Below are positions 25,744 to 63,880 of a stretch of DNA of 64,000 nt, one piece after another. The stretch spans positions 62,001-126,000 of the forward strand of contig NW_020843935.1 of NCBI RefSeq assembly GCF_003704095.1. Direction: 5' to 3'. The position numbers were made by a program, and so were the translations under genes. The notes beneath the pieces were generated by a model. It searched no databases, had not been told where the DNA came from, and saw only the letters and a list, made by a program, of their open reading frames with translations. Numbering within the stretch: the first letter of the stretch is position 1; every line of letters begins with the position of its first letter. The DNA is from Pocillopora damicornis. Taxonomy: Eukaryota.

Positions 25744-28700
25744 CTATTCAAGACATCTCTGGCAAATTAAACAGGCTCTAGAGTAACAAGGGTGAACAAC
25801 ACGCCTCCAGAATGTGCGAAACATTGCGTAATATTTTATCATGTCCTTTCCTTCCCATTGATTGATCATACGATGTAGTTTTTCGTACTTATAGTCGGGA
25901 GAGTGTGCATATAAAAGAGGAACAAATGAACGAACATTATAATGCTCGTCATCATCATACCGACCATCGCTATCGGCCTTGTGATGTCTGTGGCGAGACC
26001 CTTTATGTTGTCTTTTACCTGGACGTGTGTTTTGACTAGCAACTTTTCTTGCCGCCTTTATCAGGGCATTAGCTAAAGCCTTTCCAACTGTATTCACAGA
26101 ATACTCATTTCTACTTGCGTTGGACCTTGAAGCCCGAGGGGGAGCGTCTTGTCTCGTCACAGTGGGAACCACTTGATATAGCGGCACTGGAGGACCGGAA
26201 CGTTGTGGTGGGTTTGGTGGCGGTGGTAACGAAGAGGCGGGAGGTGCAGGGGCAGGAGCAGGGTTGGGGATCTGCCGCATGCTAGGTTGAGCCTGTGACA
26301 GTGCTTGCGACAACGCTTGCACTAATCTATCATTACTGATTGGTTGAATACCTTGCTGCATGTTTTGTGCCAAGGCTTGTACAAGAGCAGCTGTTAAAAG
26401 GTCTGGCGGCTGGTTTCGCGCCTGAGCTTGAGTTGCAGCGAGAGCCAAGGCAGATGCAAGGGCATTCGGCTGAGACTGGGTCATGGAAGAGCGAATGGCA
26501 TTGGCAAACATTCCGGTTAAACCATTATACAGAAGGGGATCATAGCCTGTTTGGCCAATAGAGGAGAGGACATTAGGGAACTGTTGGATACCAGGTAGCG
26601 AAAGAGGGGAGGGATACATGAGTGATGAAGGGTATTGTAATTGTTGGTTGAGTGGGGAAGCGTACGAAGGCAAAGGTAAGCCTAAAGATTGCATTAATGG
26701 TGACTGCAAACTGCCCATGCCTCCGGGATATAAAGACCCTCCCTGTGTCATAAGCCTATTGTTTAAGAGAAGAGGAGAAACTGGATTTAACGAAGGTAGT
26801 CCCATAACAGGGTTGGACATTAACATGTTATTTAGTCCTCCCATTGGTGCCGCAGGTGCTGACGAGGACACCGTTATTGCTGCCGGCGGTGATGCGGCTA
26901 TAGTCACTTGTCCAGGTGGAGCAGCAAAATTTTGTGACGAAGGTGTGGCAATAACGGTTCTGGGTGGCGAAGCTTCAGCCAAATACACTGCAGGGGTGTA
27001 AACGGGGGCTGGAGGTGATTGCACCATTGGTTGTTGATACATTATAGGAGCCGGTGGTGGTGCAGGAACAATTACGGGAGCTGGAGCTGGAGCCGGTTGA
27101 GGCTCTGGTGGAGATGCAATTATGTATTGTGGTGGGGGAGCTGGCACTGGGGGTGGAGGAGCAATAATGTATTGTGGTTGTGGCGGCGGTGAAGGTGCAG
27201 GTGCGAGGGCATACTGGGGTTGAGATTGTGCTTGAGCAGGTTGTGCCATTACTATTTGAGGTTGTTGACCGGCTGGTGACGCTTCCGAGGCGGCAGGCAT
27301 TTGTGCAATGATTATTTGGGGAGAAGGCTGTGGGGTAGATTCTGCGGGAGCGGGCAAGGTTTGAGCATAAATCACGCGTGGTGTTGGTGACATCGGTACA
27401 TTTTCATGTTGTTCAGCCTCAGCCGTTTCGCCGTTATCCCCAATCTCTAGATTTAGATTGATGTTGGCAGGAACTGGTGGTGTCCCTCTTTTAAGTAAAG
27501 GGTTTTCAGACTGGATGTCTATGATTTGTGGCCGTGCAGGCGGCGGTGGGATAGGTCGTGGGGTTGGTGGCGCGGGCTGCGGTGTCGGAGGAGTGGTTGG
27601 TGGGGTTGTTGGCAGAGGGGTTGTTATCGGGGGTAGGGTAGTTGGAGTTGTTAACGGTGTCGTGAGCGTCGTGGGTGTTGTTGTGGGTGTAGTAGGCGTT
27701 GTTGGTGTCGTAGGCGTTGTAGGTGTCGTGGTAGGTATCTTCTTTGCCGTTGGTGCCGCAGTTTCAGCTTCCTCGTCCAGTTTGAAAGCCTCATCTTTAG
27801 TGTTTATTGTGTTATCAGGTGGCAAAACAATGAAAGGCTCATCGTCTACCACTGGTTCATTGTTGGAAATCTGTTTTTTATACAAGTTTGGGTCGTACCA
27901 AGGATGTAGGCCTAGGAAATGTCCCCAATAGGGCTTTCTCGCTGATGGTAGGTAAGTTCTTTTCCAAGTGAAATCTTTTAGTAGAAAAAAAAACAAAACA
28001 AAAATTAGTTGTGATTACTTTTGGTTCCTATGGCCTGAGATGAGCTAGGGTATTGCTTGTTATCCAATCGAGGATAGCCCATCAGCCTCCGGTCTTTTTG
28101 ACAGGTGTCCTTAACGTTACTCACCCGGTTGGACAGAAGCAGCATCATGTACCTCCGCCCTAAACATAAAAATACTGTGACACAAAGAATTTTTATACAT
28201 TGCAGTACAGACGGTATACCTTAAATTGGCTATAGCGGTCTGAATTTTACCTTATCGGCCTTATAAATGCGAATTTTCTGGTTCTGACACAATAATATGG
28301 CGTCGATTAGTCGGATTGTTCATGTCGACAATAGTGTATCAGGTGAAACATACATAGACTGGCCCCGTGAGTAGCATAAGACAATTTTTTTTAAATTAGA
28401 AACGAATATAATCGTCTTTGTGTGACCTCGATCGGTTTACGTGTAACATGAATATGTTGGTCACATGTGATTAAAAATGTAATTCCTTGATTATATGCAC
28501 CTTACCATTGGATCTTCTTGGCTTTGTTTCACCAGTGTGCAAGGAAGCAATTAGATTCCTTTTGTGATTTAAAACTGTCGTAATGAAATAGCCATTTGTA
28601 TCTTTCATGGGTCTGACATTTTCATTGTCTATGGCTCTTTTGACTTGCGGGTCACCATCTCCGTGTGAAGCTCCGGCCCACTTGTCGGTTCTCCGTTTTA

Positions 28701-28833
28701 AAGTGATTGTCTTTAGGTGTGCGGTCTTCCTGTTATGAAAAGCAGTTCCTTCATGTATCGTTACCATGAAGATGAAAATAGAGACACATAGCATCACAAA
28801 CTCTCTCACATGGAGGGCATATAAACGTTTCAT
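25744..28833 (-). CDS. Gene A: secreted Pro/Thr/Gln-rich orphan protein (852 aa) with mucin-like TTP tract and C-terminal Cys cluster
   Basis: complement(join(25744..27974,28506..28833)) with a phase-1 intron (AATG|GTAAGG ... CTACTAAAAG|AT). Signal-like segment FVMLCVSIFIFMVTIHEGTA, basic propeptide with KR/RR, and C-terminus HPCYSRACLICQRCLE*. Confidence 0.85.
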
Positions 28834-29888: not shown

Positions 29889-32512
29889 ATGAGATTTGCC
29901 TTGTTTTGCGTGTCCATACATTTGCTTTTTCTGGGTCATGTGATAGCAAGGGCAGCACAATCAGTGAGACTTCAAAGCCGCCGATTTAAGTCCTCACATC
30001 GAATTCATTCAAGGTTATACAGTCATGGAAAGAATCAAATTGACAAGAACAACAAGCATGGTATGTAAGGCGATGTAAAAGTTAACAATAATACATTCGT
30101 ATGTTTAGTCAGTGACATCATGAACTATTGAGTGTATTTTTATTGTTTTTGAACTTAAGAATAAATAAATCTTATACTAAAAGACAGCTCACTCTTGACA
30201 AGAGTCTGCATTCCGTTAGGTAGTGATCTCAAGACGATATTTCTATTTTTGCACTCCAAATGTGATTTGCCTTTATAAGCATGACTGTTAAGAATAACTG
30301 CGACTGATAATCGCAGAGTTTCTTTTTTTTTTTTTTTTAATTTTAGATGACCTCGTTACACCAACATTGTCTTTTGTTTTTTTTACTTAAAAAAAGGGGT
30401 CCATATTGTTATTCTGATCCAAAAAGAGCCGTCATTATCCTTTCATTATTAATTCCCCTGTGGTTCCAAACCACTGGCAAAGATAGGTTTGAAATACATT
30501 GAACTTAGTTAAACTTCTTTCCCACCTGTATAAATTTCTTTAAAATTTCATTTGTGTCCTCAGGATTAAAAAGAATCTCTCCTTTGAGGCGACAGTGCTA
30601 ATCACATGTTTTTAAGACCGACCTATTATACATGGCTTGAGATAAGCTGACTTATCCCTTTTTTTTTACAGGGCCAGGAAGTGTACCAATGAATGTGAGG
30701 CATAGACATCTTTTTCATTCGATATTTAAGCACCGTAAAAAGTTCTTAAATGCTAAAGGTTCCCCAAAAGAAGTGATCGTCAGGGTGAATGGACAAAATG
30801 TTTATTCCAGCAAAGCTCAAGGATCAAACTTCTCCATCAATGCTAGCGTACCAACGACTTCTCCTCCTCCTCCTCCCTCGCCTCAAACACACAATATCAA
30901 CCTCCACATTAACCTTACTAGACCAGTAAGCCCCCCTGGGAGACCAAGTGACCAGCCGATTATTATAGCTCCCCCACCAAGGCCACAGCCAGTTGTAGCT
31001 ATAGTTCCTCCGATGGCATCACAACCTGCGCCAGTACAAGTTCAACCCATGGTGGTTCCTCAAGTACAACCTCAAGTACTACCACTTCCTGCTCCCACCA
31101 CTGCACCAGCGCCCCCTGAAAAGAAGGGCCAATCAAGTCTCAGTAAAATATTACTTACGGCTGCTTTGTTGAAGACTCTATCGGGAGGAGACTCTTCTGA
31201 AAGCGCAACACAAGGATTTCCATCATTGATGCAAAACCCACTTGCCTCTAATGGCTATTCTCTTAATTCTCTGCTCCCGGGTACTTCAGGTGTTGCTGCT
31301 TTGCCATCAATAGGGAATCTTCCTCTGGGCTATCCTCAGATTGCGACTCAGCCCGTCGGAAATCCCTCACTGGGATATCCTCAAGGTAATCTCCCAGTAT
31401 TAGGATACCCAGCGCAAACTGTTCCACAAACAGGGTCACAAGCCTTGGGATATCCAGCAACGTCAGGCGTCCTAGGAGGCCTTAATGCGGCAAAACCTGG
31501 CGTCATGGGATATCCAGCCATTGGCACAAACATGGGATATCCAGCCATTGGCACAAACATGGGATATCCAGCCGTTGGCACAAACATGGGATATCCAGCC
31601 GTTGGCACAAACATGGGATATCCAGCCGTTGGCACAAACATGGGATATCCATCCACGGGAAATCCAGGCATGGGATATCCCGCTGTAGGGAATCCAAGCT
31701 TGGGATATCCTGCCGTTGGGAACCCTAATGTGGGAAATCCTGTTGTAGGAAACCCATATTTGGGCTACCCTGCAAGGGGTGTCCTGCCGGGCGGTGTAAA
31801 CCAGAACGTAAGGTATCCTGCCAATTGGAATCCAAATAACAGGTATTTAGACGGCAATAAGCAAAACAGTAGAGATCCTATTAGTGGGAATCAAAACTTG
31901 GGCTACCCGGGAGGAGCTAATCAAAACGTAGGGAATCCATCCGGAACCACCCAGAACTTGGGTTTTCCTGCTGCTGCGAGCCAAAATATGGATGCTGAAG
32001 CAACGATACCAAACTTTCTGAGTGGGCTAGCTCCTGAACCTTCTGCTAGCCCTCTTGAGGCTAACAATCCACCATTACCTGGTCCATCACCTGGTGTACA
32101 ATCAAATGCACCAACCGCTACTGTGCCTCCTCCAGTATCTTATAATGCCCTATTGCCTGCGAATGCGTCGCCTGTTGGTACCGCTGGTGGGAACCCTAAC
32201 CTTGCTCAAGGTCAGGGCCAGACTGACACTTCAGAAACACCCGTTGTGCAGCCTAATGTAGGAGTAGCAGGGACACCTGGAGTAGTGACAGGTCTCTCTC
32301 AAGCTCAAGGACAGGGCACTGGCACAGTTCTGCCTGCAACAACATCAGCAGGTGTTCCAGGATTTGATCCCAGTTTGTGTTGGTGTGGTTGCGAGCCGAC
32401 GTGTGCTAATCCGTGTGACCTGTGCAATAGTAGCAGAGAGAATAGTTATGGCAACATTTTAAATCAGTACAATACTGGCTCAATAAATCCTTCCAATGGA
32501 CGGAAGAAATAA
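29889..32512 (+). CDS. Gene B: secreted Pro-rich/GYP-repeat protein with 6-Cys module (670 aa)
   Basis: join(29889..30060,30672..32512). Exon 1 is not in the ORF track and encodes MRFALFCVSIHLLFLGHVIARAAQSVRLQSRRFKSSHR...NKH. A phase-1 intron (G|GTATGT...TTTACAG) joins it in frame to the 607-aa ORF. Confidence 0.88.
31505..31650 (+). repeat. Coding 27-nt tandem repeat, (MGYPA[IV]GTN)x5 plus partial, in gene B
   Basis: Near-identical ATGGGATATCCAGCC[AG]TTGGCACAAAC units. Confidence 0.95.
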
Positions 32513-34428
32513 TCGTTCGTAATCAGCAGAGGCTTCCTCGCAATTTTTGTAAGAGAGTTAGAGAGAGGTCTTCGTTTTCTTATATTGTATTATTCTTCAT
32601 TGTCAGCAAGGCTGAAATGATAAGTAGTGCAGACCTGAACATGAAAGTGTATTGTTAATCTCACTGGTATTTCTGAAAATTGACTTAATATATTGGTATG
32701 CAGTATGTATTGGTGCTTGGTTAGTAGCTCGAAGTTAAATTGTCTTTGAGAGAAAAAGACCAGATTGGCGCCAGATTTCCTCTCATGAAAGGTGGAAATA
32801 AACAGTAGCTCAGAAAATTTTATTCCATTTTACGACAGCTATGAGGTTTTAAAATGGCTAGGATAAAATTGAATCAATGTACGATTCAACTTAGTGTAGT
32901 TTGAGGGTCCCCTATCAGAGTAGACTGCTCTTGTGGTTACTGACGTTTGAAAAGCTTGTTACTTAGCAACTCACCTTCCCACTTACTTAGTCAGAGAACG
33001 AAGTGAGCCGTGCTTAATGGGATGGCAAAATATATCACGTCGGGCTAAGATGATGGGTCGTCATTGGCACCTTTCAAGTTTCTTCGTTCACAGACTTTGG
33101 TGCTAGATAATTCTTTTGCATAGATACATTTTAAACAATTTGTATTAAAAAGGCTTTTTTATTCAACGTTCATGTTGTTCTGTGATAATTGTCCTTGTAC
33201 ATTCTGTTACAACAATTATCGTCGATAACAATGACAAAAGTCTCGATAACTTGAGCTGCAATTGTTATCGAAGTCAATGATGACTTCCGTTCCGGTTGGT
33301 AAATGTCACTCACCGGTACTGGTATGGGGTGATGGCTCTTACAACAAACGATCAGCATGTTTCCATTGTTATCACCAGAATTATTTTTACGGTTAATTTT
33401 ATTCACCACTAATGATTATAATTTGTCAATTTTTACGACGAAGGCTAACGTTAACCCCATTGATACCCCTGTTACCGAAATTAGTCCCCCTCAGAACTAG
33501 CCTCGCCCTGAAGATCATATGATGCACTAGACTGTTGCTCCCACCCTCAGAATACTTAATAGGTTTGAACTGCACTGCACGAAAGCGCTTGAACCTGCCC
33601 TGGGCAGAGGCTTTTCATTCACTAGACTTTTGCAATTCCATAAAATATTTTTTAATGAATCAGCAATTACTTTCCTTCGCAAAATGCTTGTGAATGGTTT
33701 CCTCCAACTAATTTGAAAAGCTTTCAAAATAACAGTCAGTTAAGTGTATTGTCAAGACATCAGAACTATTCTTGAAGTAATCAATTCTAATCTACATCTT
33801 TTCCTTAATTTGCATTTCTTGCCACGCAAGTAGCTCAGGATATTTCAGACAAAGATGAAGTAATTCTAGAAGCGGTCAAATGCTATGACGAATTGATTGC
33901 ATGCACGGGAAGAACTAATTTGTAGATGATCTTATGGACTCAGGTCATTTTTATGGTCATTGATTTGTACTGATTTTTTTGTTCAATTTCCTCCTTTCTT
34001 GTTGAACAAATGAGCATTGTCGAAGCGCCTGTAACAATCAATGGGCAATTCATTACCCTGCTTTCTTTTCATAGTCGTAAGAGGAAGTGGGATTCCATAA
34101 CAATGGAAGTTTTGGTTTAAGAAACTTCCATCACGACTCATCTAACGTCTTAAAGAACCCCAAGCTGAATCCACCAGTTTAAGTTATAAACTTTATTTTA
34201 TGAGTCACGAGAGAAAGGGAGATTACTTGTAAGCAGTCAAACTAATCCTCCCATATCTAAAAAAAATGAAGAAAGGATCACTCAAGAACAATGCAAAACC
34301 AGTTTTGTCGACTGGTGTTTATAAATATTTGATTCATGGCGTTCGAGTTAAACGGGGCATTTACAGCACTTTAGTGCTAGGTAATAAAACATGGAAAGAA
34401 ATAAGGTTTGTGACCCATAACTCATAGT

Positions 34429-37400
34429 ATGAAAATCAAGGGAGAGGTTCTTCTGCTATGGCAAGTTCTGTGTGTACATTGGGTGATCACTCTGGCTGGA
34501 CATCATAGAAAAAACGGCCAAAGGTCACGAACAGAATCTGACGTGAAGGATAGAAGACACAAATTAAACAACTACTTTCTCCAAAGGAGGATAAATGGTA
34601 AGAGTTGAGTGGAAATGTTATCATGAACTATCTTTTTTTCTGTTAGTTGAAGTGTAACGGGAGTGGATATAGGATCTGAGCGAGACAAGGATGACCTAAC
34701 ACAAAGTATTAGGAAACTTAATCTTCCCATCCTTTACTTGACAATGAAATTGAACCGTGAAGCGCACGATCTGTAGAGACAGTATTTATTACATATATAC
34801 AATTAGAGGCTGGAAAAATAACAGACGGTGATTGAAGGTAGAATCGACCCTGTCGAATGTGATATTATCCGTGAAGTGTTAATTTGGCCCAGCCGTGGTT
34901 GACGTGACAAAAAGTTGCCGAAAAATGAAAACAGATCATACGAAAACGCTGTTTGTATAAATTTTTCAGGATGTTTTGACTTTGTGTGAGATGAAGTGAA
35001 AAATGGTCGTTTCCTGTTGATGAGGTATCGGGTTTCAATATCAGTAACAAAATCAATGTTTGCACAAATTTGGTTGCAACTTCAATTCAGATATGCCTTT
35101 TGTATCGAAATGACGGCTGAAATCTGCTGCAGCGCATGCTGTTACACTGCGCTTTAACGTGATTTGATATTAAAACGCTCGACCTTTAAACTTAAAAGAG
35201 ACAGTCATATGAACTACATGCCACCAATCAACCTGACTTTAAGATCATACTAAGGATGAAAAATGTATTCATTTATTATTTCATACAATTCATTGGTACA
35301 TTAATTGAAATTCAAAAAGAGTGCTCACGATATAAATAAGAGGAAATATGTTAGATTACAAGTAGCATAGTACAAGTTCGAAAACTGCCTTCAAATGAGA
35401 AAAAAAAGTAGACGGAGATCGTAGTTTTAAAAATGACTCAGCAACCTGACTGGACACGTGAAACGAACGTGTAATTAACGAGCATCCGCTAGGAAAGCCT
35501 TCGAATAGAAAAAAAATAATTTGAATCATATGTGCATTGTTTGTAGCTTCCAGTAGTTTAAAATAGATCGCGATGAGATTGAAAAGAAGGCTGCGGGATT
35601 TCGTTATGTCAGGGTAGAAAGATTGAACATGGAATCGTCTTTGGTCCAATAATTTTCTTAGAGTTGAAAATTAAGTAATGATTTCAAGATAATTTTCAAA
35701 GGATGATATAAGAATCATTTGGCTTTCGGATCTTTTACTTCTGCCATAAAATGCGTGGATTAGTGACTTTCCGAATGACCAGGATTGTATTTTCAATCAT
35801 TTATAAGAATGAACTAAGGTACCTCCTAATATGAGTAGTGCTCAAGTGTATTGTGGAGTTTTTGCATCAAGTGATCTAACACTTGGGGGATGACCATGGA
35901 AACTCTTTAGATCATTATAGAACACTACTCTGAACTACAATCGTGTGGTCCCTTTTATTCGTGGTAGTCTGAGAAAATGCAAAGGACAATCGAGTATAAA
36001 CTTTCAAAATGTAGTGGTGCATGGTTTTTTTCCTCTCTACATCAATTTGGTGCATCCAACCCCGCATTTATAATCTTCTCAATTAGTAAAGAATTTTGCA
36101 TCAAGGCTGTGAAGTGTCGCTCGGAGTGATTCAAAACCTATATCAATTGTTTGTCAAAAATGACTAAATAAATATATGTATTGATGTTACCATTTTACTA
36201 CCAGAAAACAGTAAGAATTGTGGTTCAGGAAATTGAGCTGGAGAGTGTAAGGGTAAGATAGAATTAGGACTAGAGCCACGTGTTTCAGAGCAACATTTTA
36301 CACCGAGAACATGTGCAGTAAAGGTGAAAGAATTCTAACTCAAATCCTTCTATTTTAGGATCTCTTCACCATCCACTTAATCATCTAGGATCTATCAGGC
36401 GATCTTTTATCGGGCGTAAGGTACACATTAAGGGTGCACCAAAAGGTGTTATCGTGACCATAAATGGGCAAAGAGTTGACCCAAATACTGGCAGCACAAT
36501 ATTACCCATACAGCCACCTCAGCCAGCACCCCAGCCAGTACCACTACCAGGTCGGAATGTTCCCATTAATGTTCATGTTCACGTAAATAAAAAATACAAC
36601 GATGCCAACATCATTGGTCAACGTAAGCAACCCATTATAATCACTGCACCCAATCCTTATCGAGCTGTGAGACCAATTGTGATTCCGATGCCAGCACAAG
36701 TGCCAGCTCCACAGCCCCTTATATTACCTGCTCCATTACCTCCTCCTCCGCCTCCGGCTGTCCTTCCAGCGCCTGTTCCATTACCTTTACCAGCACCTCT
36801 ACCACCACCAGTTGCCATTCCAGTTCCAGCTCCAGCTCCAGCTCCACCTCCAGATAAAGAAGACTCAAACTTTGCAGAAATTCTTCAAACAGCTGCATTG
36901 CTTAACACTCTAAACAAAAAAGAGGAAAGTCGCCCAAAAGTTATACCAGTTGTTCAGCCTGTAATTACTCCAATGGCTTATCAGCCTGGCAGAAATCCAG
37001 CGCAGGGATATCCAGCGCATGGAAATCCGAATCAAGGATATCCGCCGGATGAAAATCCAAATCAGGGATATCCAGCAGGTGAAAATCCAAATCAGGGATA
37101 TCCGGCTGGTGAAAATCCAAATCAGGGATATCCAGCAGGTGAAAATCATAACCAGGGATATCCAGCCGGTGGTGGGAATCAAAATCAAGGATATCCAGCA
37201 GGTGGAAGCCAAAACCAAGCCACAACAGGAAAAGCTCCAGTAGGAGGTACAAATATTCTTTCTGGACTATCAGGAATCCTGCCTTTGTTGCTTCCCTTCA
37301 ATTGTAGATGTGGATGCGAAAGAAGGTGCCCGGACCTTTGCAACCTTTGCAAAGACGTCGACGAGGAAATAATTGACACATTAGACTGTTGTAAGTCAAT

Positions 37401-40400
37401 GCCATGTCCCTGTGTAAATGCCGCAGCAGGCACACAGCCTGTAGGGGCAACTGCAACAGGAACTGTGTCAACTCCCAGTGGGGGTGCCGTAGTTCCTCAG
37501 CTGCAACAAGGTGTTGTGCAGCAGGCACCAGCATCAACCGTAAACCAGATACAACCAATGCAAATCTCTAACGGTGCTACTGCCCTTGCAGCTCCCCCCC
37601 AACCTGGTCTGGTGCCACCATCGCAGCCAGCTTCAGCTCCACCTCTCCCTTCATTATCTGTATTACCTGGACCTCAGGCTCCCGGTGTATCATCGCAACT
37701 TGCATCAGCACCACCTCTGCCCTCTTTAGGGCGGCCAGCCTCAGCGCCTCCTCTCACTTCATCATCTGCATTACCTGGACCTCAGCAACCTGGTCCAGCA
37801 TTACAGCCAGCTTCAGCGCCCCCACTTCTGCCACTTGTTCCTACATTACCACAAGCCCCTAATCCTCCTGTTGTTTCATCGCCTGGAACTCAGTCTTCTG
37901 GCACAGCATCTCAGCCGTCTGCTCAAGCACCTAAACCTTCATCATCTGGTTCTGCTCTAGCGCCTGCTGTTCCACCCCCACTCCCACCCAAACCAGAAAT
38001 TTCTCCTCCAAAAACAACCTCATCAAAGCCAGGTCGGGTCCCGGCTCCTGTATCCCCTGAAGCTGTTCCACAACCTGAGCCAGAAATTCCAGCTCCAGGT
38101 CCTCCTGGTTCGACTGTCCCACCTAAGCCGGAGATTCCAGGAAAAGGGATAAGTACTGGAACGGGTACTGAACCGCCTGGGAACGAAAATACTGCACCTG
38201 AATTAGAGCCACCTCCCACTGATACAGGCTCTCCAGGTCCTGACAATTCAAAGACTCAAGGTGAGTTAGTTGCTCCTCCTCCGGACAACTACGGACCCAT
38301 CGAGATACCAACAGTTCCAGTCTTACCGGGTGAATCACCAACCACTGGTGAGTATCACGTTTAGAGAAATTATAAGTAAAACCGTCTTTGGAGCAGGCGC
38401 GTTTCTTAAACATAATTTTAAAACCGTTGGGACGTAAAGAATGTTATATTTGCAGTATCCTTTTTGAAGAAAACTGCGTTGAAAGATAATGAAGGAAAAT
38501 TTTAGTAGACGTAACTTCATTTTATTGAATGGAAATGAGGAAAGAGTCGAGTTTAACGCGTGAAATGTTACAAAGAAGAAAAAAAGCATAGTTGGATCTA
38601 ATGATCTACTATCCTTTTGAGTTGATGAGTGATCGAAATGGAATGCTCTCCAAACTCTTATCTTTTGGATGGTTATTTCTACAATAGACTCCTTGAGAAG
38701 TTTACTGACAGCTTTTCGTACTTTTTGAAAATATGTTGTTGCTGATTTGTAGGTCTCTATATAAAAATGTTCTCTTTGTGCTGATTTGAATATATTCATG
38801 TAGAAATGCTGGAATGCTTTGTTAAGTGTTTCCATTATCTTTTAGCGATTTTCACTGTAGACTTCAAACCTGAGCATATCACCTTTAAAGTCTAAATCAA
38901 GCTGATGGTGTGCTTGGCTGGAAGCAGTTTCGAGATATTATTCTCTTTCCTTATGTGACATTCAAATCTATTCTTCCCATTTCCAGGTCATTCTCAAACT
39001 ACAAGTTATCCTGTTGGTCCAGGGCCTCCTGGCGCAAATCCAGCACCTCCTAGTTCATCTACCTCTTCCACAAATCCTTCGCCCCCTCTTCCGTCATCGC
39101 CACTCATGAAGAATGCATATCCAGTTCCTCCTCCAGCCCCTCAGGTATTTATCATAAAGGAAAATAGCAATCCAACAAGAGGCCCAGAGGACAGTAAAAG
39201 TGCTGAGGCACTCAATAGTTTAAGCGAATCATTTGAAAGTGCTTTCAAAGAAGCGCTTAAATCAGAACGAAGGAAAATAGGAAAATATAGAAGTCATGCT
39301 AAAGGGCATTTTAGTATTAAACCCGAGGAAGAAGACAATTGGAATACAAAAGACAGCGAAACAGATGATCAAGAGGAGGAGGAGGACGAGGAGAAGGTGC
39401 AGTCTCATGGCGGCTCTCGGAGAGATTTCACCGACGGGGAAGACAGTAAACTCAACGAGGATTTTTCTAACGATGATATAAATGATAATGGCAATGAAGA
39501 TGACAGTAATGATGATGATGGTATTGATGATAATCATGATAATAATGCTGATTCTAATACTGATGAAATAGATGATGATGATCATAGCGATGATAATAGT
39601 GATGACGATGGCAATAATATTGATATCAAGGCGGAAAAAGAGCCGCCATACGACTTGGACCAACCTCGTCATTCTCATGCTCTATCATACTTCAGAGGAA
39701 ATGAGCAAAGATACGAGGGAAGACGCAAAATGTATCCGACAAATAAAGGAAGGAAGTATCAAAGACTTCATGATCGGCATCGAAATGGAAAACAACGCAA
39801 TGAAGAAACGAGAGAGAGTGAGCTGTTGTATGATCGTTCAGTCAACGGTGCTCTCAACCGTGATCGTAATAATGTTCATTCTCGCTATCACAGAAAGAAA
39901 TTTCCATTATCTAAAACAGAAGAGGACGAGGAAATGTCACCAGAACATGATTCCAATTCAATCCATGTAGAAAATGTTCAATACAATCCATTGGAAAATA
40001 CTGAAATTTCCCGCCTTCGTCATGGAGGTGCAAGTAGGACTTTCAAGAGCCCAAAGCATAGTTTAAAATCTCCAGAATCCCCTAAGGAAAAGCACCATGT
40101 GCCTTATAATCATGATAGAATCAAATTTCGTCATTTTCAGGACAAAGGCTCAGACAAGCATGCAGGCCACGATAAAGAGGGTGACCACACCTTCATCAAG
40201 GAACATCATGATCATCATTTGAGCCATTCAAAAACTGCAATGTTACCTGAAGATGAAATCACTGAAGAGTCAGCCTCAACGATTGAAGAAACTAGTTATT
40301 CAGGGCATAATGAGAAGGTTAAATCCTTAAAGTCATTGAAGAATTTCTTAACTTATACACACTACGCGAAAGGTGCGTCTCATCACCTTGTAGAAGACAC

Positions 40401-40587
40401 TCGCACTAAAGACAAAAAAACTCCTCTTGGTACTGTGGAGTCATTTAAATCAGGCAATCATAGGCATTCTAGCAAACATAGCAAATCAAAACAGGAAAAG
40501 GACATTGCAGAGGATTATAGTGAGAGTTCGGGTAATGAATCTGGTCAAAATTATAACAGTGGCGATTATGAAGATATTGGCAGTTAG
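34429..40587 (+). CDS. Gene C: secreted Pro-rich/GYP-repeat/Cys-module protein with Asp/Asn-rich and His-rich C-terminal exon (1252 aa)
   Basis: join(34429..34597,36359..38347,38987..40587). Exon 1 is not in the ORF track and encodes MKIKGEVLLLWQVLCVHWVITLA|GHHRK...QRRIN. Two phase-1 GT-AG introns join it in frame to the 636-aa and 493-aa ORFs. Confidence 0.87.
37003..37200 (+). repeat. Coding 30-nt tandem repeat (consensus QGYPAGENPN, 7 GYP units) in gene C
   Basis: CAGGGATATCCAGCAGGTGAAAATCCAAAT-type units. Confidence 0.95.
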
Positions 40588-43214: not shown

Positions 43215-45408
43215 CTGAATATGTATTAAAAAGGAAGCTTAATAATAAATGACAAAGAAATCGTAAAAAAGTCACAGAAAACAATGCCGCAGCATGATTA
43301 GAAATATTCCCAACTAACTACTCCTTTTTCATATTGCTTGGTTTCATCAAATGAGTTGATGATGTAAATGAGCCACCAAAATGAATTTCTAAAGCCGACG
43401 TTTTTAAGCGTTAACCTGTCGCTCGAAATGTTGATTTTACAGCATTGCCATGCTTCATCTTTTATCATCATTGTCATGATTATAATTTCTATCTGTCATT
43501 GCTATTCGTTTTGTGAATTACTATCGTTAACAGAAATTGGTCAGAGATGATTGGTGAGTCACCTTCCGTGTTAGTGCAGTTTTAATCACAAGAAACAGGC
43601 ATTTAATGAAAATTGTTCTTTTAACTCGTTAGAAAGCAGTCGAATGGTTATAAGATAGAAGCCGCAAAGCTAATTGGTGAAGATAAGACGAAGAAAACAG
43701 CGTTAGAGTATGAAACTTACTGTGTGCCCCTTTGATTTAATAGTTGCAAGAGAAGTCTTAAGTTATCGTTATGTAGCAGACTTACGTCAGAGGAGGTGTC
43801 CACGCATCATGCCTTCCATACACGTTGTCACGTTGTAGTCATCAAATATCGTCAAAGTTTCATTAATTAATGACGATTTATGCGTAAGTTAATGAAAGCT
43901 AAGCTGCAGAAATGTTGATGCATTCATGCCTCATTGCAACATGCTGCTGCATAACAGAATTCAGAGCCTAAGTCCAAAAACCACTGGGAACTCACGTAGT
44001 CCTAAGGAGTTATATTTGGCAGTCCAATGCAAATGAAAATTCCGATTGAAATACCTTCTCATGTAAGAGCACACAAAGGAAATGGGATTGCAGCAGCTAA
44101 TGCATCATTTTGTCTGTAGTCCTCTTTAAATAATTTGGATTTTATGGTTGAATAATTTCGTTAAGGGAATAAATGATCCAAAATTTCCACAATCTGTCAC
44201 CAAAAGTGATTGGGAAGAGGACAGCTAACTCTTTCTGAGACGAAGTCTCGCTATTTCTGTTATTGCACGAATACAGTACGTTTTCGTCCCGTTATGTTTG
44301 CCTCAGTTTTGTTGTCAGGCAACAAATTACCAATATTATGGTACCCTTTTACGGTTAACAGAGGCTTTAAGTATTAACATAAGATATTAGCTTATTAGAA
44401 AGTATCAACCTGTTGATATATTATCTATTTGCCGTGATTTTTTTTATTTCATTATCTTTAGATAATTTCCCGCTTCAAAATTATATTCAATAAGTTAACT
44501 GATGAGCAAATTGCGTTATGAACCAACTTTTTTTGTTACATCACTTCTATTTACATCATTTTTACATACTAAAAATCGTCCAAAAAATACTGTTAGATAT
44601 TTCCCTCCTACTATCATTGTTCAGAGCTCAATTTTAAAAATGTTCAAAGCCTTAGACCGACTCGTAGAGTTGCTTTGTTGCTCTTACATAGCATTTTGCA
44701 GAAATATGCAATTTGCATATACGATATTTGTTTTGATCTTTTCTGTATCATGGTTATGGGTGAGCTGATTCACAGATATTCTTTTGATGAATTGGTGGTG
44801 GTCGTATTTTTTTTTTTTCGTACGTCCAAAATCGTGGTTGGTGTAGGTAGACGAAGGAACGTCGTTATCGGTCTGCTTATTGCATCGTGAGTATGGGTGA
44901 GCTGTTGCTCACTTCGTTTTTGGAGCTGGTAGTGCTGCATAACTGATCTAAGTTTCTATTTGGTCTACACTCAGACGAATCTCCTCCCTGAGAAAAATTT
45001 TTCGCGAGTGTGGATCAAAATGGGACTACCTATGAAAATATTTTCAACTGAGAATTTCAGAGCCAAATTTCAAGTTATCAAAACTGCCAGCTACGGCAAA
45101 CATCACACTAATGAACGACTTTAAAAACGGAAAAAGGCAAGATGCTGAGCCGTGATTGGTTTTGAATTATGCAGCTGATTGCGTGAGAGGCTGGGAGCAT
45201 TTTCTGTACCAATCAAGTAGCATTGTGAGGTGCAACAGTGAATTGCTGTTGCTGCTCATTTGCAGAAAATGGCCCCTTCTGATCCAGTAGTTAGCCTGGA
45301 CGAATGTCTTTCATTACGTTCCTTTCACACCTTTTATGCTGTTTTTACTTTGGTGCAGCGTAGTTTTCTCTTTAGCACCACGTTTTTTCTTTTTCTTTTT
45401 ACGCTTAC

Positions 45409-63880
<18,472 letters not shown>

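Follow-up and report, generated by a model that had tools for sequence, protein, structure and literature searches.

The stretch of DNA analyzed here, a window of 64,000 nucleotides from Pocillopora damicornis (RefSeq assembly GCF_003704095.1, contig NW_020843935.1, positions 62,001 to 126,000 of the forward strand; all coordinates below are those of the window), contains two genes, B and C, whose protein products carry a 16-residue module with six cysteines in the spacing CxCxCx3Cx3Cx2C (1,1,3,3,2). B and C are spliced and expressed tandem paralogues, their module is under strong purifying selection, and this six-cysteine module of a stony-coral gene pair is real, conserved and apparently undescribed. 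By analogy, it most likely works like a disulfide micro-domain of the type of the minicollagen/NOWA cysteine-rich domain (CRD), without being a member of the CRD family. The more specific idea, to which we give an even chance of being correct, is that the conserved module likely forms a knot of three disulfides and is likely the linking point by which disordered chains are tied into an extracellular matrix. The module and its immediate surroundings are the following:

32378 to 32425, + strand: six-cysteine module of the B type, translating to CWCGCEPTCANPCDLC
37303 to 37350, + strand: six-cysteine module of the C type, translating to CRCGCERRCPDLCNLC
37351 to 37413, + strand: acidic linker and second four-cysteine cluster CCxxxPCxC, found in C-type proteins only, which makes a 10-cysteine unit

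The first-pass annotation of this DNA had reported the two motifs together with the string CCKSMPCPC in gene C, and all three translate as it claimed, the latter from positions 37387-37413. It had also listed the module for both genes; both copies are indeed present, but they do not count as independent, since B and C are paralogues that arose by duplication and thus carry one inherited module and not two separate occurrences. In the six frames of the window, the pattern C-x-C-G-C-x3-C-x3-C-x2-C has two matches, which are the copies in gene B and gene C. From six-frame residue frequencies, the chance expectation of the full pattern is about 8e-6 per window and about 0.03 per 234-Mb genome, and the exact motif is therefore far above chance. 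A genome scan with a shorter DNA pattern for the first four cysteines (CxCGC-[codon VHN]-x2-C), which misses variants with a sixth codon that starts with T or has G in second position, gave 27 matches versus 25 for the reversed control and is thus at chance level; among these 27 matches genome-wide, six cysteines are reached by the two window copies only. A second pattern, CGCx3Cx3C, partly covers the missed variants, and no further full module was present among the 30 of its 121 matches that were fetched as loci. Both module copies lie inside spliced exons that are covered by RNA contigs, with the splicing seen in polyA RNA.

The concern raised in the first-pass annotation, that the cysteines might vary among orthologues, was not borne out. 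Between gene C of the window and the C gene of locus L062, which belongs to another coral, the module codons differ by eight synonymous and no non-synonymous changes, at an overall identity of 54%. The comparison of C with L061 gave seven synonymous differences and one non-synonymous, and that of B with L062 six and four; in each of these three pairs, three of the six cysteine codons carry a silent change. In C, the module is the best-conserved 16-mer of the whole protein (mean identity 0.94 over six orthologues), and in B it ranks fourth (0.78). All 11 distinct module 16-mers have an acidic sixth residue and end in CxLC, with Leu15 kept throughout. The strongly conserved non-cysteine residues differ between the paralogues, namely W2, E6, D14 and L15 in B, and R8, P10, D11 and L12 plus the DVDEE linker in C. 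The module is found in 16 of 19 representative family proteins, and two of the three proteins that lack it are fragments ending before the module position. The CCxxxPCxC cluster follows the module after 12-13 residues in all nine module-bearing C-type representatives, and in none of the seven B-type representatives. In gene B, all six cysteines behind the signal peptide belong to the module, which lies 28 residues from the C-terminus. Correspondingly, all ten such cysteines of gene C belong to the module (six) and to the second cluster (four), 12 residues apart. Stylophora B and C have extra cysteines that are not conserved.

The features of the two genes outside of the cysteine-containing regions can be summarized as follows:

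29889 to 30060, + strand: first coding exon of gene B, with predicted signal peptide (about amino acids 1-22) and the first part of a basic pro-segment rich in His, Arg and Lys; hydropathy 2.55
30672 to 32512, + strand: second coding exon of gene B, of low complexity, under an RNA contig
30758 to 30805, + strand: conserved N-terminal motif GSPKEVIVRVNGQNVY, a predicted beta-hairpin, common to B and C
30893 to 30916, + strand: conserved NINLHINL motif, present in a variant form in gene C
31139 to 31180, + strand: conserved LSKILLTAALLKTL segment, a predicted helix, common to B and C
31329 to 31969, + strand: Gly-Tyr-Pro repeat region of gene B (the protein has 16 G[YF]P in total)
32498 to 32509, + strand: GRKK at the C-terminus of gene B, possibly a signal for amidation
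34429 to 34597, + strand: first coding exon of gene C, with predicted signal peptide and basic pro-segment
36359 to 38347, + strand: second exon of gene C, with N-terminal motifs, polyproline, GYPA repeats, cysteine module and a Pro/Ser/Ala-rich stalk
37006 to 37197, + strand: GYPAGxNxNQ repeats of gene C (7 GYP)
38987 to 40587, + strand: third exon of gene C, Asp/Glu-rich, then with a His/Lys/Arg-rich tail
39145 to 40140, + strand: in-frame alternative intron of 996 nucleotides in the third exon of gene C, with a GT..AG joint

The B protein of 670 amino acids is spliced from 29889-30060 and 30672-32512, and the GT..AG joint 30059/30671 is seen in four of four RNA runs and additionally in two of three RNA-type runs of another set. 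A single RNA contig (31622-33152) covers the module, the stop codon and the 3' untranslated region. In case of gene C, the joint 34596/36358 is found in two of four runs of the first set and one of three of the other, a 2,400-nucleotide RNA contig spans exon 1 and the entire exon 2, and the joint 38346/38986 is likewise present in RNA. The whole C protein has 1,252 amino acids and is identical to the database protein P0007. A run that covers introns shows none of the B and C splice joints. The joint of the alternative intron is found in four of seven RNA-type runs, with its short side anchored by 25-30 letters only; its removal takes out 332 residues including the Asp/Glu-rich region and, with the frame checked, results in an isoform of about 920 residues. 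Public Pocillopora models (P0005, P0006, P0008, P0009) fuse B and C to proteins of 1,819-1,912 amino acids. As these models have three different junctions and no B-to-C joint is listed in the seven RNA-type runs (contigs cannot prove its absence), we treat the fusions as annotation artefacts.

Both proteins have a hydrophobic start that is followed by a segment with 38% Lys+Arg+His. Hydrophobic N-termini occur in all eight examined cases (Pocillopora, Stylophora, Oculina, Montipora and locus L062), basic pro-segments with 29-40% Lys+Arg+His in the seven N-termini in which the segment can be delimited, and, judged by hydropathy and motif only, a KR or RR before the first motif is conserved in C-type proteins. 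B and C are thus predicted to be secreted, with a signal peptide and a basic pro-segment that ends near dibasic residues. There follows in both a series of short motifs (GxPKxVIVxxNGQ, INxHxxx, QPIII and ILxTAALL), and then proline-rich linkers and Gly-Tyr-Pro repeats. His-rich segments are present in both. An AlphaFold2 model of the N-terminal region shows a hairpin and a helix only and no globular domain (predicted template modeling score, pTM, 0.17), and the chains are therefore probably mostly disordered. At the other end, six of seven B-type representatives terminate in Gly or Gly plus basic residues, and a conserved amidation signal at the C-terminus of B is possible. The GRKK end occurs in the B proteins of Pocillopora and Stylophora and a free Gly end in four other B-type proteins, and Montipora B has neither.

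How widespread is this family? The Stylophora orthologues were found by a word-indexed search (B with 83% over the region, C with 87%). A module profile run against 1.84 billion representatives gave nine matches at E <= 0.001, seven of which are B- or C-type proteins; the two others, P0021 and P0023, are repeat translations and were dropped. The whole-protein profile also gave nine matches, of which eight are family members, and P0046 was dropped for matching by GYP repeats only. One of three loci, L063, turned out to be a bacterial off-frame open reading frame and was likewise discarded. All named family members are stony corals, namely Pocillopora (three species), Stylophora, Montipora (two species) and Oculina, and the sequence cluster of gene B contains Pocillopora records. 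No named relative from outside the Scleractinia appeared in the profile searches. The score of Montipora B, 38.9 bits, is however close to the cut-off, and an absence from anemones is therefore not established. Protein queries against the Pocillopora genome, made with the cysteine unit of C, the N-terminal parts of both B and C and the tail of gene A, returned the query locus and weak, non-coding-looking matches only, and they are insensitive, as the C query missed B. At locus L062, the order of a divergently oriented exon 1 of gene A, then B and C, is conserved, with signal-like starts on all three, and the B orthologue there, which was located via synteny and not via the motif, contains the module. 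A tree calculated from 14 N-terminal sequences, without fragments and near-copies, separates the B clade from the C clade with support of 100/100 and places Montipora within B, on a long branch. Since Montipora belongs to the complex corals and Pocillopora to the robust ones, the duplication of B and C likely predates the complex/robust split.

With respect to known six-cysteine systems, the Hydra CRD is the most instructive comparison. Its cysteine pattern is CX3CX3CX3CX3CC (PMC4863159), and it serves to link minicollagens, CPP-1 and Cnidoin through reshuffled disulfides (PMC4863159, PMC6910907, PMC4321713). How a single CRD folds determines whether it makes one intermolecular link or several (PMC4863159). 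The architecture of CPP-1 and Cnidoin comprises a signal peptide, a long propeptide ending in KR, a Pro- or Gly-rich body, and disulfide-cross-linked six-cysteine CRDs (PMC4321713, PMC6910907). The coral module resembles the CRD by six cysteines in less than 20 residues and by the Cx3C spacing in its core, and B and C resemble CPP-1 and Cnidoin as Pro-/Gly-rich cnidarian proteins with a predicted signal peptide and basic propeptide; the layout described for Cnidoin, with its Gly-rich body and Cys domains, comes close to both. A minicollagen-type feature of B and C is the predicted signal peptide with a propeptide ending at a basic dipeptide. The first-pass annotation had considered a variant or an analogous cross-linking domain, and the analogous part agrees with the CPP-1/Cnidoin architecture. 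A variant of the minicollagen CRD, or any membership in the minicollagen/NOWA CRD family, is unsupported: the spacing is 1,1,3,3,2 and not 3,3,3,3,0 (PMC4863159), the closing CC, which even non-canonical myxozoan CRDs keep (PMC7981951), is absent from the module, each chain has one module and not an N-terminal plus a C-terminal one, and the longest Gly-X-Y run has three triplets in B and two in C. The second cluster of C does open with CC, but has four cysteines. The canonical CRD pattern does not occur in any of the six reading frames of the window, and a genome pattern for the CRD tail, with 2,538 matches that are mostly simple repeats, is too loose to be of use.

It could nevertheless be that the module is a strongly diverged member of a known cnidarian six-cysteine family, either a permuted minicollagen CRD, with which it has the Cx3Cx3C core in common, or a shrunken ShKT domain (PF01549) that has kept its Cx3Cx2C tail. 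ShKT domains are common in the secreted proteins of the Pocillopora genome, with 144 matches, and they share with the module the six cysteines, the Cx3Cx2C end and a hydrophobic residue before the last cysteine. The invariant L15 is the commonest residue at that site among the 45 ShK-like domains of the genome (L in 12 of 45). However, the module has 16 and not about 36 residues, its first three cysteines are packed as CxCGC, and it is devoid of the tail consensus N-C-[KRP]-K-[ST]-C. Only the last two spacings agree with those of ShK, which mostly are 6,8,10-13,3,2. At the five non-cysteine positions of the tail, the 11 modules score between -0.5 and -6.6 bits, versus an ShK median of 9.2 (null p 0.06-0.38). 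Moreover, neither a Pfam ShK match nor a CRD or ShK chain among the PDB sequence matches at E <= 10 was obtained. By its spacing and tail residues, the module is not an ShKT domain, and that it is a diverged member of either family appears very improbable to us.

Coral skeletal proteins that are Cys-rich or acid-rich (galaxins and the Cys-rich skeletal organic matrix proteins) are comparable in being secreted coral proteins, as predicted for B and C, and the tail of C is Asp/Glu-rich like that of acid-rich matrix proteins. In galaxins, 13-19 tandem di-cysteine repeats occur together with more than 10% Cys (PMC4890752). Unlike this, the cysteines of B and C are confined to one module, tandem di-cysteine repeats are absent, and CC doublets amount to one in C and none in B; neither protein is a galaxin.

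Could the cysteines bind metal instead? Metallothioneins are small, cytosolic, very Cys-rich proteins without signal peptide that contain clustered CxC and CxxC motifs, and the module has such clustered motifs as well. The first-pass annotation had offered a metallothionein-like site as an alternative, and in a wider form this would mean that Zn or Cu is bound via thiolates, in a metallothionein-like or Zn2Cys6-like cluster that serves as metal cross-link or store. Thiolate clusters typically contain CxCxC and CxxC elements at such close spacing, and the His-rich segments of both proteins would fit as well. But the proteins are 670 and 1,252 amino acids long, have hydrophobic N-termini and only about 1% Cys, and the signal peptides predicted for all eight N-termini, and thus for every full-length orthologue, put the module into an oxidizing compartment. 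In addition, there was no metallothionein or zinc-finger match in Pfam, which assigned no family at all to B, C or the module (10 module peptides at E <= 10, whole exons at E <= 1). A metallothionein membership is thus rejected, and metal binding of any kind is in our view quite unlikely.

This brings us back to the module as a disulfide-forming linking point. The lumen of the endoplasmic reticulum is oxidizing and the proteins are predicted to be secreted, and we therefore infer that the six cysteines would be oxidized to three disulfides in the secretory pathway. After secretion, a partial disulfide exchange between neighboring chains may take place, as in case of the Hydra CRD. With one module per chain, this would yield dimers or small branched oligomers, and a network would need a second contact. 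Candidates for it are the N-terminal hairpin, the NINLHINL motif and the LxxAALL segments, as well as cross-links between tyrosines of the GYP repeats. The Gly/Pro/Tyr repeats would function as flexible spacers. Several observations weigh against this linking role. Minicollagens, CPP-1 and Cnidoin carry CRDs at both ends, whereas B and C have one module per chain. The cysteine numbers are even (six in B and ten in C), and all cysteines can pair within the chain. The AlphaFold2 model of the C cysteine unit, calculated from four sequences, gave no confident structure (predicted local distance difference test, pLDDT, 49; pTM 0.22). That Cys and Gly do not vary in the 11 distinct 16-mers is partly circular, because these were picked by pattern and several of the proteins were found by the module profile. 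Finally, the Oculina isoform X2 (P0043, 1,071 amino acids) is a full-length C orthologue that lacks the cysteine unit and has no cysteine behind the signal peptide, and at least one modeled product hence does without the module. The name of this protein suggests a further isoform; alternative splicing, an error of the gene model or a loss may each account for the missing unit.

Single copy and even cysteine numbers would suit a purely intramolecular disulfide knot that does not exchange disulfides. Placed on a long flexible tether, such a domain would bind or recognize a matrix partner, a receptor or a sorting factor non-covalently. The strong paralogue-specific conservation of non-cysteine residues is what one would expect of a specific binding surface, the 10-cysteine unit of C looks like a self-contained domain, and the Gly or Gly-plus-basic end that B usually has is a hint of regulated secretory processing. 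On the other hand, such a domain has no known partner, the B module has no flanking dibasic sites, so that a release of a free peptide is not indicated, and the host proteins have the composition of structural matrix proteins. We consider this a possible, if somewhat doubtful, explanation.

If the linking role is correct, a far-reaching scenario can be envisaged, which we regard as rather unlikely in its entirety: stony corals may have invented their own disulfide cross-linking micro-domain before the complex/robust split and independently of the minicollagen CRD. It would build an elastic network of B and C, for example for tissue-skeleton anchorage, in which the acidic tail of C would grip calcium carbonate and could be spliced out to switch this binding off.

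A PDB sequence search at E <= 10 gave ribosomal eS12 (E 0.1) and a three-finger toxin (E 0.2) as best matches, which we take as chance. The ESM Atlas gave no usable match to either the module region or residues 60-420 of C, a result that shows neither novelty nor absence. Foldseek and VIA-align with the model of the C unit gave no fold match, which at a pLDDT of 49 is uninformative. In the full-text literature, with subscription papers outside the scope, neither a description of the B/C family nor any paper with the six accessions of these genes was found. CxCGC-like strings led to 31 papers, 30 of which look unrelated by title, and "piccolo-like" in combination with coral to an irrelevant match only. 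The available main text of PMC8162421, PMC7115838, PMC12960093, PMC13581030, PMC8382919, PMC12549020 and bioRxiv 10.64898/2026.03.24.713908 does not show the genes, which may be listed in the supplements; for the skeletal proteome (PMC7115838), the Stylophora accessions are absent from that main text, with the supplements outside the scope.

What has been found is thus an apparently undescribed and strongly conserved cysteine module in a two-gene family that so far is known from stony corals only. Its genes bear misleading database names, such as piccolo-like, NAC-alpha-like, PPE10-like or ribosome-binding protein, and are often annotated as a single fused gene. Should the module turn out to cross-link, it would represent a second way in which cnidarians build materials with disulfides. 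It would then also be a directly testable tag of 16 residues that is interesting for biomaterials, and a starting point for understanding what keeps coral tissue or its organic matrix together. As an intramolecular knot only, it would add another small, lineage-specific disulfide domain to those known, which would be modest news.

Among the neighboring genes, gene A (25744-28833, - strand) is Pro-rich, has a signal-like start and lies divergent from B. Its C-terminal end is as follows:

25753 to 25788, - strand: C-terminal Cx4Cx2Cx2C of gene A, CYSRACLICQRC, with cysteines 839, 844, 847 and 850 in one exon-joining model

The first-pass annotation had linked this tail to the module; the tail exists, but its spacing is not that of the module. 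Gene A as a third family member was rejected, with no significant similarity to B or C and a profile score within that of local shuffles. Its exon 1 is conserved at the same place in L062 (score 163 versus a shuffle maximum of 42). No intron joint of gene A was seen in RNA, and its stop codon varies between individuals, with a base change in two of four RNA runs.

The gene at 18185-23270 (+ strand) is long and of low complexity; it has an N-terminus that looks like a signal, many dibasic sites and no Pfam family, and is a fourth uncharacterized gene of the cluster with a secreted-looking product. Exons at 45314-63616 (- strand) encode EGF-like repeats and, with E 7.9e-11, a Laminin_G_3 domain; they lie upstream of an open reading frame of 820 amino acids that is rich in Gln and Pro, and L095 contains a signal-like open reading frame and another EGF-like exon; all these parts possibly belong to one large secreted gene. 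The region 12252-15065 (+ strand) contains a pyridine nucleotide-disulphide oxidoreductase gene (Pyr_redox_2, E 2.4e-33), presumably for an alternative NADH dehydrogenase. Elsewhere in the genome (G000), the loci C730, C1082, C2210 and C2866 represent a repeated family with cysteine clusters of the RCGCRASCRGRCxCL type, which differ from the module and which we take to resemble CXC domains of mobile elements.

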